From the NCBI GenBank assembly GCA_963662665.2, contig CAXXJS010000050.1, positions 1 to 64,000 on the forward strand: DNA of 64,000 nucleotides, given 5' to 3'. Origin of the DNA: Candidatus Latescibacterota bacterium. Lineage in GTDB: Bacteria; Latescibacterota; UBA2968; GCA-2709665. Position numbers and translations under genes: made by a program. Below are positions 14,007-58,550 of this stretch, in pieces; the first letter of the stretch is position 1; each line of letters opens with the position of its first letter. Under the pieces are notes generated by a model that saw only the letters and a list, made by a program, of their open reading frames with translations, searched no databases and was not told the origin of the DNA.

Positions 14007-14081
14007 TGGTGACCCCGAGGGGAGTCGAACCCCCGTTGCCGGGTTGAAAACCCGGTGTCCTAACCACTGAACGACGGGGTC
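14007..14081 (-). tRNA. tRNA-Glu(TTC)
   Basis: GACCCCG acceptor stem, anticodon arm CCGGG-TTTTCAA-CCCGG, GGTTCGACTCC, 3' CCA. Confidence 0.97.
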
Positions 14082-14316: not shown

Positions 14317-14393
14317 GGGCGATTAGCTCAGCTGGTTAGAGCGCTGGTTTCACATACCAGAGGTCACTGGTTCGAGTCCAGTATCGCCCACCA
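14317..14393 (+). tRNA. tRNA-Val(CAC)
   Basis: GGGCGAT acceptor stem, anticodon arm CTGGT-TTCACAT-ACCAG, GGTTCGAGTCC, 3' CCA. Confidence 0.97.
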
Positions 14394-15673: not shown

Positions 15674-16180
15674 TCAGGCATAGCGGGCCGGATGGCCGCG
15701 CCTGTAACAGTCCGTTGAGAGCGTCGTTCTGCTGGCCAGGCCGGGCAAATCGGCAGCCTGAGCCGGACTGCCTGCTGAAGCATGCGAGGCGGACCGCAGA
15801 CCGGAAGGACCTTTTCAACGGGCTGTTATGGGTGAGGAAAGTCCGAGCTCCACAGGGCAGGATGCTGGGTAACTCCCAGGCGGGGCAACCCGAAGGAAAG
15901 TGCCACAGAGAACAGACCGCCAGCGGGCGAAACCACGGTTTCGTTGCGGGCAAGGGTGAAACGGCGGGGTAAGAGCCCACCGCGCTCCCGGAGACGGGAG
16001 CGGCACGGTAAACCCCATCCGGAGCAAGGCCAAATAGGAGCGGAGAGGCGGCCCGTCTCGATAAAACGCTCGGGTAGGCTGCACAGAGGCGTCGGGCAAC
16101 CGGCGTCCCAGATAAATGGCCATCCGTCCGGCGCTTTAGCGGCGGACGACAGAACTCGGCTTACAGGCCCGCTTGCCTGA
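15674..16180 (+). ncRNA. rnpB: RNase P RNA (bacterial A-type) with an extended P3
   Basis: GAGGAAAGTCCGAGCTCC, GAAAGTGCCACAGA, GGTAAACCCC, GAGCAAG, ACAGAACTCGGCTTA; P1 AGCGGGCC/GGCCCGCT; P2 GGATGGCC/GGCCATCC. Confidence 0.96.
15705..15828 (-). mobile_element. MITE-like inverted-repeat element inside rnpB P3
   Basis: TAACAGTCCGTTGAGAG...CTTTTCAACGGGCTGTTA; both ~35-40-bp ends align with the element at 57455-57619. Confidence 0.8.
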
Positions 16181-54785: not shown

Positions 54786-55589
54786 TCAAGGGTTCTGGCC
54801 GGAACGCCCCCCCGTGACTGGCCGTCGGATTCGATCGCAGGCCAATGATCGTCCCCGGTGATTGCATCCAAAGGCCATTGTCTTCCAATTCTCGTAAAAC
54901 CGTCTTGCGTATTCCCGAAAGAAATCGAGGCGGTCCGTCACGGCCTGCTCGAAACCCGGCATGGCATCCTCGCCGAGCGTTTCGAGCAGGGCCTCGTGGT
55001 AGGCGGGAACGGCGTCCCATTCCTTTATGGTCTCCGCCGTGATTTCTATATGAAACTGGGCGGAAATCGCGTGACTCCCCATGCTCATCGCCTGGACCGC
55101 GCATAACCCGGACGATGCAAGGACCTCCAGTTCACCCGGCACGGTCTTTACCGCGGAGCTATGCCACTGAAGGCAAGGCAGCGTCGCCGGGAAACCCTTT
55201 AGGAATCCACTCTTCTTCCCTGGCTTCGTCAGGGAAATGTCCATCACCCCCACCTCGGGGATCCGGTTCGGACCGACGTGGCCGCCCAGAGCCGCGGCCA
55301 GCAACTGGTGTCCCAGGCAGATGCCCACGAAGGGCATCTTTTTCTCAGCGACCGCGTAGCGAATGGCGGCTTTCTCCTGCACCAGCCACGGGTACGCCTC
55401 CTCCTCCCATACGTCCATCGGGCCGCCCATCGCCCAAAGCGCGTCATAGGCGTCCAGGTCCGGGATATGCTCGCCCGCGTCCAGTTCCACAACGTCCCAC
55501 CGGATCCCGTCTTCAGCGAAGAATTCGCGAAAGAGGCCGGGATGTTCGACGTCCAGGTGTTGAAAAACCAGCAACCGCTCCAGGGCCAT
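54786..55589 (-). CDS. Type 1 glutamine amidotransferase
   Basis: MGGPM, GICLGHQ, QWH, QFHIE. Confidence 0.9.
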   Translation of the reverse strand: MALERLLVFQHLDVEHPGLFREFFAEDGIRWDVVELDAGEHIPDLDAYDALWAMGGPMDVWEEEAYPWLVQEKAAIRYAVAEKKMPFVGICLGHQLLAAALGGHVGPNRIPEVGVMDISLTKPGKKSGFLKGFPATLPCLQWHSSAVKTVPGELEVLASSGLCAVQAMSMGSHAISAQFHIEITAETIKEWDAVPAYHEALLETLGEDAMPGFEQAVTDRLDFFREYARRFYENWKTMAFGCNHRGRSLACDRIRRPVTGGRSGQNP

Positions 55590-55743
55590 GACGTTCTCCC
55601 GGATTTTCCTTCTGGATTCCGGTCTGCGAATTCAATATCTTGGAGCTGGGACCTGCGCCGACCGTTTGACAATCCTTCGAAGAGCTCAGGACAAGGCTAA
55701 GGGACCGCGGGCAAGGGTCACGAACCGGGTACGGCACCGTTGA

Positions 55744-56478
55744 ATGTCACACGTGAGTGACAGAATGAATCTATTGCGAAAATGCGGAGCGGAATTCCTG
55801 GGCGCGTTCGCCATCGTGCTGGGCGGTTGCGGCGCCGTTGCCGTCAACCAGATCAGCGGCGGGGCAGTCTCTCACGTGGGTATTGCCACGTCGTTCGGGC
55901 TCATTGTGATGACGATGGTTTACGCCACCGGCCACATCTCCGGGGCGCACTTCAATCCCGCCGTTACGATCGCCTTCTCCTTTACGCGACACTTTCCCAA
56001 ACGGGAGATCGCGCCGTACATTGCCGCCCAATGCATGGGCGCCGTCCTGGCCAGCTGCATCCACCTCGTCACCCTGTCTCCCGTCCTGAATGCCAGCCTT
56101 CCCGGACAGGAACTCGATCTGGGTGTCACCCAGCCTCTGGACGGCGCGTGGACCACGGCCTTCGTATGGGAGTTCCTGCTCGCCTTCCTGCTGATGGTTG
56201 TAATTATGGCGGTTGCCACGGACTACCGCGCTACAGGTCAGGCCGCCGGCCTTGCGATCGGCGGCACGATCTGGTTCGAAGCCATGTTCGCCGGCCCCGT
56301 TTGCGGGGCATCCATGAATCCCGCTCGCAGCCTGGGCCCGGCCCTTGTTTCCGGCAACTGGCTGCATTTTTCAGCCTATGCGGCGGGTCCTGTGCTTGGC
56401 GCGTTTGCCGGCGCGCTTTACTACGAATTTATCAGGTGCCATCGGGACGGGGGGGCGGAAGTCAAGGGCTGCTGCTAA
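55744..56478 (+). CDS. MIP family aquaporin (NIP-like)
   Basis: SGAHFNPAVT and MNPARSLGP; C-terminal GCC. Confidence 0.93.
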   Translation: MSHVSDRMNLLRKCGAEFLGAFAIVLGGCGAVAVNQISGGAVSHVGIATSFGLIVMTMVYATGHISGAHFNPAVTIAFSFTRHFPKREIAPYIAAQCMGAVLASCIHLVTLSPVLNASLPGQELDLGVTQPLDGAWTTAFVWEFLLAFLLMVVIMAVATDYRATGQAAGLAIGGTIWFEAMFAGPVCGASMNPARSLGPALVSGNWLHFSAYAAGPVLGAFAGALYYEFIRCHRDGGAEVKGCC

Positions 56479-56491
56479 CCTTGATTCGCAA

Positions 56492-57247
56492 GTGCGCCGT
56501 GAAAAGGCGCGGAACTTCAGTGGGTGAGAGTCCCACCCGACAGATGTTGCCACAGTCGGAAGCAATCGGAGCGGAGACGTAGGTAACGACATCTCCGAAG
56601 CCTCCGGTGTAGAGGGTCGCCAGGCGACTCGGCGAGTATGTGGGCTGAAACGTGAGTAAACGCTGAGCAGGCCTCGAAAAGGGTAATGCGGGAGCCGACC
56701 CGGCTTGCGAACGGGGAAGGCCGCCGTCGTTGGGGAAGCAGGCAACGAGAGCACCCAACGGTCCCGCCGGGGTAATGGCGGAGGCACGCATACAAGGAGA
56801 TCCGACGCAACACGGGAAGCCCCAGCGGTGGTGGAGAGCCACCAACCGGAAGCCCGTGAGGGCCAGGCCGGGCCGTATGGGGTGGCGGACAGGCTCGTAG
56901 TACCTGTGATGCCGGGTAACGCCGGCGGAGGAAAGGGGCCTGACTTCGGATGTGCTTGTGAAGGGGACAACTGTCGGGAGAGTGGCGCAAGCCTATAACC
57001 TCCTCCAGAATAAGACGAGGCGACTCCAGATCAAGCTAAGGTTTCAGGTGAAGCTGTCCGGGCAGATCGGGCAGTGTGTACCTGAAGGCGATGTCCGTCG
57101 GAGAGCCGGATGCGGTAACTCCGCACGTCCGGTTCGACGAGCGGGATGTGGAAACGGAGCAGGGAGGGGCTATTGAGGCACCGCCAGACGAAAGGGGCGG
57201 GAACAGACAGGCCACTCCTAAACCACCGCGCCACATCTCGACTCTAC
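56492..57247 (+). mobile_element. Group II intron RNA lacking a reverse-transcriptase ORF
   Basis: 5' GTGCG; DV GAGCCGGATGCGG..CCGCACGTCCGGTTC (57103-57135); DVI with bulged A ending CTCGACTCTAC; EBS1 TTGCGAA matches the 5' exon TTCGCAA. Confidence 0.92.
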
Positions 57248-57454
57248 TTCTTCGGGGAAGTAAAACCGAATATTTGCAAGTAGATAAAGGCGATTTAACT
57301 TCTGATTACCAGGATACACCAGGTCACTGGACGTGGACTGAAAAAACGTCCTTTTTGACGACCGTTACGGCCAGCTTCAAGGGTTTTCGTCGCGTTGCCG
57401 AGTTGCTGTTTTTTTCACATTGAGGCTAATGCCTGCCTGTGCGTCACTCGATCC

Positions 57455-57619
57455 TGACAGCCCGTTGAAAAAGTCCATCCGGTCTGCGTCCGGCCCTTGC
57501 GGCCGAATGACTGAGTTGCGCCCCCTCCCCGAATCCCCGATTCGACGCGGTCGCGCGCCTTGTCTTCGGCCACAATGACTCGGCCTCGCCTGCAGAGCGA
57601 CTCTTTCAACGGACTGCTA
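57455..57619 (+). mobile_element. Complete ~165-bp MITE
   Basis: TGACAGCCCGTTGAAAAAGTC...GACTCTTTCAACGGACTGCTA terminal inverted repeats; no ORF. Confidence 0.8.
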
Positions 57620-57713
57620 AGTGAAACCTGCCGGCAAACCCACTTTTCGCCCCGGAACCCGTCCTTTGAAAGCGCAGCCTGCCGTAGTCTGCCTCTCTTT
57701 GCTGTGCGCCGGT

Positions 57714-58550
57714 TTATATCACCAGCGCGACCGCCAGAATGGCCAGCGCCACCCCGGCCGCGGCGACCCGATTGAGGCGTTCCTTCCAGAAGAAATGGGC
57801 GGACAGGTTGTCGAGCAGGATCACACTGCAACCCGTTGCAGGAAAAAAGAGAGTGCCCGGCAGCCGACTGAGGGCAGTCAAAATGACGGACAGCGCCAGG
57901 GCGTTGTACGTGCCCAGGCCGATACCCGTTGCGAGTTCGTGCCGCCGGGGGCAACGCATTTTTCCCGCAACGAAGATATAGCCAATGGTACCCGCGGTGG
58001 CGCCCATTACCACCAGGACCTGGATGAATTCCCCGTCGAGTCCGGCATAGTGGACCGAACGCAGGCAGGAGTGACTCAGTCCCTGCGCAAGAAAAACCGC
58101 GAACAACAGGCCGAAGGTGTTGCCTCCCGTCGCGCGGACACTTCCCCTCGCGCCCGAGGTCATCATCACCAGCGCGGGAAAGGCAAGGATGATTCCACCA
58201 AATTGTGAGAGTACGACCGGTTCCCGCCAGAGCCAGATTCCCAGGGCAACGGGCACCGCAATGGACATGCGAAACGCCGTCAGCACGGCCCCGACCGATG
58301 CGATTTCCAGGACTCGCATCATCAACGACATCGAACCGATGAATACGGCGCCCGTCATCAGGCCGGTTTGCACCGCCGCGGCGGAGAAGGTAAACCGACC
58401 CGTTGACAGGAGATAGACGGAAAGGACAGCGCAGAGCACCAGATAGTTCGTAGAGACGACAACGGGCGCGTAATAGCCGCGTCGCTGGGAGAATTTGCAA
58501 ATCTGGACGAATCCGAAATCGAGTAGAATTGCGAATATCAACCAGGACAC
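57714..58550 (-). CDS. EamA/DMT family transporter
   Basis: ~10 TM helices in two repeats ending WLWREP and FFWKERL; GTG 58550 start. Confidence 0.82.
   Translation of the reverse strand: MSWLIFAILLDFGFVQICKFSQRRGYYAPVVVSTNYLVLCAVLSVYLLSTGRFTFSAAAVQTGLMTGAVFIGSMSLMMRVLEIASVGAVLTAFRMSIAVPVALGIWLWREPVVLSQFGGIILAFPALVMMTSGARGSVRATGGNTFGLLFAVFLAQGLSHSCLRSVHYAGLDGEFIQVLVVMGATAGTIGYIFVAGKMRCPRRHELATGIGLGTYNALALSVILTALSRLPGTLFFPATGCSVILLDNLSAHFFWKERLNRVAAAGVALAILAVALVI

Follow-up and report, generated by a model that had tools for sequence, protein, structure and literature searches.

A group II intron without a protein gene, present in eight near-identical copies within a small inverted-repeat element of a Candidatus Latescibacterota genome

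Bacterial group II introns without an open reading frame (ORF) are rare and probably short-lived, and they nearly always occur with a related intron-encoded protein (IEP), C.te.I1 being the sole exception (Zimmerly & Semper 2015, PMC4424553). Thermosynechococcus elongatus carries 28 related introns, 17 of them ORF-less through one deletion (Mohr, Ghanem & Lambowitz 2010, PMC2882425), and sister IEPs serve to splice and mobilise these ORF-less introns, whose targets have diverged and whose insertion sites lie in other mobile elements (PMC2882425). We describe an intron of this kind in a 64,000-nucleotide (nt) stretch of DNA from a Candidatus Latescibacterota bacterium (contig CAXXJS010000050.1, positions 1 to 64,000; hereafter the window), where positions 56492-57247 of the forward strand, behind an aquaporin gene, are a complete 756-nt group II intron without a protein gene. 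[quoted passage not shown]

The TeI3 introns of T. elongatus are the closest precedent, and the present element is a case of the same kind in a new phylum. The two systems share near-identical ORF-less copies, one domain IV deletion with common break-points, and remnants of the ORF ends (PMC2882425), and they also share ORF-bearing relatives in the same genome as a source (in our case a probable one) of reverse transcriptase (RT)/maturase, diverged EBS sequences, and other mobile elements as preferred insertion sites. They differ in phylum, in that the IEP here is without an endonuclease domain, and in that our case is known from sequence alone. The TeI3 sites are introns or insertion sequences, whereas the niche here is a small non-coding inverted-repeat element, and the lineage here is common to many species of its genus and also present in helper-less genomes. 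C.te.I1 of Clostridium tetani, whose genome has no IEP gene (PMC4424553), is matched in this respect by three relatives of the window's genome (G009, G006, and G005). Unlike C.te.I1, a single intron with alternative splicing, the window's own genome (G000) has helpers and several near-identical copies at different sites. RmInt1 of Sinorhizobium meliloti resembles our case in its RT/maturase without DNA-binding or endonuclease domains and in its high copy number (PMC4615759, PMC3035460). It is autonomous, whereas the intron described here is ORF-less. RmInt1 reportedly homes in an insertion sequence, which is to say in another mobile element. B.c.I4 of Bacillus cereus, finally, has its 3' splice site altered (PMC4424553). 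Our intron resembles it in carrying additional RNA toward the 3' end of the ribozyme, which in B.c.I4 is reportedly a 3' extension. In our intron, unlike B.c.I4, an extra ~70 nt lies inside domain VI and the position of the 3' splice site is normal.

The element is a second, independent case of a proliferating ORF-less intron, in an uncultured phylum; the well-studied case belongs to a thermophilic cyanobacterium (PMC2882425). Points of particular interest are that passengers outnumber helpers (8 to 3), that the niche is MITE-like, that the lineage persists across a genus, and that orphan copies reside in helper-less genomes. The target here, a dispersed miniature repeat, supplies ever new harmless landing sites. 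The case bears on intron multiplication followed by gene loss, a proposed route to spliceosomal introns, and for bench work it offers a naturally occurring ribozyme of compact size (756 nt), the 441-aa RT that goes with it, and a 16-nt target that is already known. Our literature search returned nothing specific to this pairing of intron and MITE or to Latescibacter together with group II introns; a group I intron carrying a MITE has been described (PMC4853749).

Anatomy, borders and conserved structure

The intron and its domains are laid out as follows.

56492..57247, forward strand: ORF-less group II intron, 756 nt, with eight genome copies 0-1 nt apart
56492..56806, forward strand: domain I (end approximate), from the consensus fold, with the Rfam D1D4-4 match at 56518-56655 within it
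56814..56946, forward strand: domains II and III (limits approximate), from the consensus fold of 15 distinct ORF-less introns
56947..57097, forward strand: domain IV remnant, ~151 nt, no ORF, from alignment to the full-length form
57103..57135, forward strand: domain V with AGC triad and 2-nt AC bulge, from the RF00029 scan, the fold, and the consensus
57139..57244, forward strand: domain VI, extended to ~106 nt, with a 13-bp basal stem and the candidate branch-point A57241 bulged

The 5' end at 56492 reads GTGCG, and the 3' end reads ..CTAC with its last base at 57247. These borders are exact to the base because 55 empty copies of the host repeat, which run from ...TTCGnAA straight into TTCTTCGGGG... 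without an intron, show the uninterrupted site. The Rfam model group-II-D1D4-4 (RF02003) matches 56518-56655 with 89.7 bits, well over the gathering score, which is 49. Domains V and VI (57097-57247) fold with z = -4.85 relative to 200 shuffles, and the entire intron is more stable than 20 of 20 shuffles (z = -3.8). A57241 is the sole unpaired base of the 13-bp basal stem of domain VI and lies seven bases from 57247. Domain VI, at ~106 nt, is far above the usual length, and its extra ~70 nt are distal to the basal stem; a short alternative form ending at 57179 was ruled out, since the empty sites put the 3' border at 57247. The pairing of EBS1 with intron-binding site 1 (IBS1) is 7 nt long, the insertion site lies within a repeat arm, and a scan of 55500-57800 gave no terminator-like site, all at odds with class C (IIC), whose introns have a short IBS1 and insert right behind a terminator hairpin or attC. 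A thiamine pyrophosphate (TPP) riboswitch candidate at 56847-56951 was dismissed as a chance match (19.9 bits; gathering score, 54.3).

A sequence-only reading of the window had called this 756-nt ORF-less intron, with its GTGCG 5' end, the AGC triad and AC bulge of domain V, a bulged A in domain VI seven nt from the end, and an EBS1 TTGCGAA perfectly complementary to TTCGCAA. All of these calls hold: the intron occupies 56492-57247, GTGCG is read at 56492, fold and Rfam scan place domain V at 57103-57135, fold and consensus identify the bulged base as A57241, and positions 56705-56711 pair 7/7 with 56485-56491. Its estimate of ~110 nt for domain IV was too short, the domain measuring about 151 nt (56947-57097).

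Conservation of the structure was assessed with 15 distinct ORF-less introns from 9 genomes, for which RNAalifold gave a consensus of 210 pairs in six domains. Standard pairs fill 99.1% of 3123 cells, as opposed to 35-44% in controls with the partners shifted by 1-3 columns. Nine pairs (31 cells) are altered on both sides, and a count of 31 was reached by 0 of 500 shuffles. The figures demonstrate maintenance and stop short of proof, because the alignment tested also yielded the structure and its sequences are closely related. Domain V is invariant or changed in pair-preserving fashion across the 15 introns, the basal pair of domain VI goes from C-G to G-U in 3 relatives, and the domain IV remnant also has pair-preserving changes. 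Five of the 15 relatives have lost the distal part of domain VI, which is therefore dispensable. Small GC-rich palindromes, GCCTGCCTG...CAGGCAGGC, sit in terminal loops of intron helices (L033-L035, L027, and L028; genomes G009, G011, and G016), and the introns of these three genomes reach 785-942 nt because such palindromes are inserted in their loops. A similar motif, TGCCTGCCTG, lies behind the MITE in the window at 57430-57445.

The sequence-only reading had further seen in domain IV a vestige of an RT-like protein, a claim for which the protein level gives no signal and the DNA level an alignment. With E values up to 10 allowed, Pfam gave nothing for the longest frame in the domain (74 aa), and BLASTP of the proposed peptide against the IEP returned only an unrelated stretch (E = 0.075). 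Positions 443-512 of the intron, by contrast with these protein searches, align with the start of the full-length domain IV plus ORF at 67.6% DNA identity over 68 columns. In the full-length form this region contains a hairpin, GGGAG-ATT-GGT-ATGA-GCC-...-CTCC, in which GGGAG resembles a Shine-Dalgarno sequence and the loop bears the start codon. The hairpin persists in the ORF-less form (at about 56960-57000 in the window), where the loop is GCAA instead of ATGA. One domain IV remnant is common to all ORF-less copies of the 9 genomes. The remnants of relatives are 78-98% identical to that of the window, whereas the latter shares no more than 64-69% identity, over ~70 columns, with the beginning of the full-length introns' domain IV. 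The remnant, being shared, argues for a single old deletion, which is also the case in T. elongatus. Other group II maturases attach to domain IVa, where their own ORF begins, as noted for IIA introns (PMC2882425), which suggests that the hairpin was kept as a handle for the protein. The retained hairpin is thus probably a maturase-binding site, judging from its likeness to these other introns.

Copies, helpers and the targeted repeat

G000 is an assembly of 66 contigs and 4.86 Mb (92% complete; 5.4% contamination). Searching its DNA with the intron gave 16 matches. The 756-nt form accounts for 8 full-length matches on 8 contigs, and the other seven copies compare closely with that of the window: four are identical, and three have one base different each. 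Three 1975-nt elements match intron positions 1-450 (95%) and 606-756 (96%), and two 5' fragments lie on contigs C5 and C10.

C61:80849-82823, G000: full-length intron, 1975 nt
C24:8271-10245, G000: full-length intron, 1975 nt
C16:124183-126157, G000: full-length intron, 1975 nt
C5:13735-13948 and C10:148792-148958, both reverse strand: 5' intron fragments, RF02003 at 67.7 and 28.4 bits

Each 1975-nt element has an open 463-codon frame with no stops, giving a 441-aa protein from ATG. This IEP matches RVT_1 (125.6 bits) and GIIM (50.3 bits), has no endonuclease domain, and scores 354.1 bits on TIGR04416, the NCBIfam group II RT/maturase model (cut-off 300); in G000, RVT_1 and GIIM are each matched only by the three 1975-nt introns. 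Their arms are 95.9% (5') and 96.0% (3') identical to those of the ORF-less form. The searches that the sequence-only reading had proposed, for identical ORF-less copies and for a related RT-bearing intron, both succeeded, with eight copies 0-1 nt apart and three relatives with an intact 441-aa RT/maturase, and they uphold its view of the intron as non-autonomous. RF00029 finds 11 places in G000 (8 + 3), and RF02003 finds 13 (8 + 3 + the two fragments). The C5 and C10 fragments have no domain V within 1.5 kb and are probably dead remnants.

The best solved-structure match of the IEP is an IIC RT (6ar1; 1.1e-53), which speaks of similarity only. The protein is 50-65% identical to plasmid-borne homologs, one of them on a Nitrobacter hamburgensis plasmid; the Ni.ha introns, of which the N. 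hamburgensis match may be one, belong to class F/g3 (PMC3552965). The IEP has at least 474 confirmed relatives from many phyla in a species-representative genome collection, and the nearest (86-90% identity) come from metagenome-assembled genomes titled Candidatus Latescibacterota bacterium. Among 80 loci kept from these relatives, 52 retain the same 5' and 3' intron ends, so the basal stem in the long domain VI is typical of this class of introns.

The draft state of G000, with its 66 contigs and 5.4% estimated contamination, invites the idea that the short domain IV or the identical copies are collapsed full-length copies, and an odd EBS1/flank pattern of the helper copies, described below, could be taken in the same sense. 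We give almost no credence to this artefact: the single-contig genomes G009, G007, and G016 have the same architecture and remnant, and contigs from two public runs of different studies, X8 at 56662-57200 (539 nt) and X1 at 56662-57130, span domains III to VI with 0 differences. A collapse of domain IV in assembly, which the sequence-only reading had raised as a danger to its own interpretation, is contradicted by the same form in closed relatives and by the 539-nt contig of X8.

The host of the intron is a non-coding repeat of ~198 nt with imperfect inverted ends, CCTTGATTCG / CGAATTGGGG, whose arms in the window are as follows.

56476..56491, forward strand: left arm TAACCTTGATTCGCAA, with IBS2 ACCTT at 56478-56482 and IBS1 TTCGCAA at 56485-56491
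57248..57429, forward strand: right arm TTCTTCGGGG...GAGGCTAA, with the right target duplication TAA at 57427-57429

The 16-nt left arm TAACCTTGATTCGCAA recurs before all 8 ORF-less copies, and ~182 nt of right arm, TTCTTCGGGG...GGGG[T/C]TAA, recur behind them; the intron site is 16 nt inside the left end. As a query against G000, the right arm has 78 matches, 65 of them near-complete. Of these 65 repeat copies, 9 are occupied at one point, namely by the 8 ORF-less copies and the full-length copy on C61, while 55 are empty and 1 is of another kind. The 3-nt flanking duplications are mostly TAA, and 7 copies have other matching triplets (TCA x3, CAA x2, AGA x1, TTA x1). With its inverted ends and 3-nt duplications, the repeat is a MITE-like element. 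Among the empty repeats, 11 have a perfect IBS1 and 11 have TTCGTAA, with one G-U pair. We compared occupied and empty arms by pairwise identity. Relative to the arm on C40, the right arms that flank C61 and the eight ORF-less introns have 90.1-96.2% identity, and those of empty copies have the same spread of divergence from it; two occupied copies are arm variants (TTCGCTA and TTTTTCCGGGAC) that are also found empty. Since the arms are 4-10% diverged and the introns 0-1 nt of 756 apart, the intron entered repeats that had already diverged.

Recognition of this site involves EBS1 and, as a candidate, EBS2.

56705..56711, forward strand: EBS1 TTGCGAA, in the terminal loop of a CCCG/CGGG hairpin, exact complement of IBS1 TTCGCAA at 56485-56491
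56680..56684, forward strand: EBS2 candidate AGGGT, pairing 5/5 with IBS2 ACCTT at 56478-56482, one pair being G-U

EBS1 and IBS1 pair 7/7 in 6 of the 8 ORF-less copies of G000 and 6/7 in the other 2. Across 32 copies in several genomes, with 17 distinct pairs and 12 EBS1 variants, EBS1 covaries with its target: cognate combinations make 5.59 of 7 pairs and non-cognate ones 3.48, and 0 of 20000 permutations reach the observed sum. Examples of changed pairs are these.

G006: EBS1 TTTCGAA / IBS1 TTCGAAA
G001 and G009c-e: EBS1 CATGGAT / IBS1 ATCCATG
G009a, b: EBS1 TGACGAT / IBS1 TTCGTCA, in the same repeat family as that of the window
G007c: EBS1 GGTTAGC / IBS1 GCTGATC

Poor pairings occur in G005a (2/7), G011 (4/7), and G003 (4/7; directly behind another intron copy). 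The evidence for EBS2 is weaker than that for EBS1; with a sliding register, cognate EBS2/IBS2 combinations make 4.00 of 5 pairs against 3.41, a difference reached by 0 of 5000 permutations. ORF-less and full-length introns with EBS1 CATGGAT also stand behind a recurring ATCCTGTnnATCCATG motif (L039-L045, L052-L055, and L101 in G001 and G007; L036-L037 in G009), which may be another short repeat family used as a homing site.

These data bear directly on whether the intron is a mere passenger, that is, whether a single repeat was entered by a single intron and the transposase of the repeat then spread the two together, with no further intron mobility. That all 8 copies sit at one point of one repeat family agrees with this proposal, as do the inverted ends and matching 3-nt flanks, which are those of a transposed element. 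We nonetheless hold it to be very improbable, for the arms around the introns are as diverged as those of empty copies and the introns themselves only 0-1 nt of 756 apart, two occupied copies are arm variants that also occur empty, and relatives carry the same intron lineage in unrelated sites that match its changed EBS1. Spread by retrohoming, and not by co-transposition, would be the simplest reading of the sequences.

Relatives, mechanism and opposing evidence

We compared 61 genomes (the window's own and 60 relatives), with only 7 candidates scored per genome. The intron or the repeat was matched in 21 of the 61, including all 14 other genomes of the genus. The relatives yielded 22 ORF-less copies of 720-942 nt from 8 genomes, one of which, G016, belongs to another genus. 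A probe specific to the ORF-less form matched 17 times in G001 (15 complete), 6 times in G009, and 3 times each in G007, G006, and G016, and the single-contig genomes G009, G007, and G016 have the same ORF-less architecture and domain IV remnant. By these sequence comparisons, the ORF-less form appears to be an old lineage common to the genus and not a local deletion. In one locus (L046, on G003:C52 near the contig end), an ORF-less copy starts right at the 3' end of another, ...CCACATCCCTACTCTAC|GTGCG, so that the two are in tandem or nested.

The ORF-less forms are not one clade in a tree of the ribozyme arms (31 rows, with identical arms collapsed, G009f left out for its large deletion, and 14 of the 52 recognisable full-length loci included). 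The full-length introns of G000 stand beside the ORF-less introns of G000 (Shimodaira-Hasegawa-like approximate likelihood ratio test [SH-aLRT], 96), within a group of ORF-less forms, and their arms are 92.3% identical to the full-length arms of G007. This placement, together with the shared old remnant, suggests that ORF-less passengers and full-length helpers may exchange arms within one genome.

From the anatomy and the copies we infer the following course of events. The intron would be transcribed along with its host repeat, in the window via read-through from the aquaporin gene, and would fold and splice by branching at A57241. Its lariat RNA would be bound by the RT/maturase of the three full-length sister introns, presumably in trans and through the hairpin in domain IV. 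The RNA would then reverse-splice into repeats with the left arm ACCTT-GA-TTCGCAA and be copied into DNA, which would make the intron mobile. Contigs from four public runs (X1, X8, and the RNA libraries X16 and X18) were examined for traces of these steps. Both RNA libraries hold intron-internal contigs, 90-95% alike, with the remnant specific to the ORF-less form (X18, 56958-57126; X16, 56978-57123) and with no exon cover; they prove neither that the intron is transcribed nor that it is not, and they carry no information on habitat.

An alternative is that the copies are immobile relics of a past spread, which now at most splice or are inert and decaying. Splicing and mobility were not observed in the run contigs, 22 suitable targets are still empty, ORF-less copies are kept in related genomes without a maturase, and C5 and C10 carry 5' fragments of related introns, all as would be expected of relics. 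Set against this, the 8 copies are 0-1 nt apart beside arms that differ by 4-10%, a sign of very recent spread; the catalytic features are all kept, as are 99.1% of the consensus pairs; and three intact helper genes are present. We therefore regard relics as unlikely and prefer a structurally intact intron that is helped in trans.

Several observations weigh against this preferred reading. Of the Rfam models put forward for checking in the sequence-only reading, D1-D4 is matched as given above, and Intron_gpII (RF00029) is not, scoring 35.7 bits on 57101-57247 in a permissive scan against a gathering score of 40; the shortfall stems from the long insertion within domain VI. Simple scans found no promoter or terminator at the locus. 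The spliced joint 56491>57248 is absent from the contigs of the 4 public runs, a result that decides neither for nor against splicing or an empty allele at this locus, and none of these contigs crosses an intron border with 31 nt to each side of it. The identity of the copies could be inflated by polishing of repeats, an explanation that runs counter to the private or shared single-base differences carried by three copies. In a fixed register, the EBS2/IBS2 score was matched by 1523 of 3000 shuffles. Eleven repeats with a perfect IBS1 are unoccupied, which implies slow mobility or other determinants. The three full-length introns of G000 reach only 5/7 pairs with the 5' flanks next to them, and their loops are seemingly exchanged: the C16 loop AATCGAA is a perfect fit to the TTCGATT flank of C61 and C24, and the C61/C24 loop TTTTGGA fits the C16 flank TTCGGAA with three G-U pairs. 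The exchange could be due to mis-phasing of the assembly across the first 211 nt, which are identical, or to copies having recombined; the full-length copies of G007 and G013 pair 6-7/7. Last, G009, G006, and G005 hold ORF-less copies and have no GIIM match and no TIGR04416 match above the cut-off, so a resident helper is not always present.

Of the 22 genomes of the family, 7 contain the IEP (E <= 1e-20). In G016, TIGR04416 gives no match above the cut-off, and GIIM is present only as a 29.8-bit fragment. G009 is one contig and 99% complete, and its only RT is a 522-aa defence enzyme of DRT8 type (L132:697-2262, reverse strand, on G009:C1; PADLOC, 530.7 bits); three of its 6 copies are 0-2 nt of 785 apart at three different sites. 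A bolder proposal, to which we assign a low probability, is that the ORF-less form may be a long-lived parasite lineage, arising from one ancient deletion, spread genus-wide and into a second genus, retargeting by EBS1, exchanging arms, and multiplying without a resident maturase. If true, this would imply mobility that needs no helper, recourse to some unrelated RT, or a helper that is gained and lost with a mobile element.

The aquaporin locus and its surroundings

The gene upstream of the intron is the following.

55744..56478, forward strand: aquaporin (MIP family), 244 aa, Pfam MIP at 171.9 bits, TAA stop at 56476-56478

The intron starts 13 nt past this stop codon, as the sequence-only reading had measured, and the TAA at 56476-56478 doubles as the left 3-bp target duplication of the repeat. 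That reading had placed the intron in the 3' untranslated region of the aquaporin gene; the position behind the gene is correct, the untranslated region is putative, and the intron lies inside the MITE-like repeat, which had itself inserted at the stop codon. An aquaporin ortholog is present in 15 of 15 genomes of the genus, that of the window included, and we read the ortholog loci in 13 other genomes (G008 left out; L134-L146). In all 13, the stop is TGA and a convergent downstream gene ends ~60-75 nt on, with neither the repeat nor the intron behind the ortholog. The insertion in the window is therefore derived and species-specific, and it looks harmless because the reading frame is intact. 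The spacer downstream of the window's aquaporin gene is 1235 nt long (56479-57713) and contains the intron in its repeat together with a second inverted-repeat element of unrelated sequence.

This second repeat, at 57458-57616 and thus close behind the MITE, is variable in its middle and is bounded by inverted sequences of 18 nt (CAGCCCGTTGAAAAAGTC / GACTCTTTCAACGGACTG), and contigs of the public runs include several variants that skip or replace 57482-57595. Elsewhere in the window are a class A ribonuclease P RNA at 15815-16179 (259.1 bits) and transfer RNA genes at 14317-14390 (forward strand) and 14010-14081 (reverse strand).

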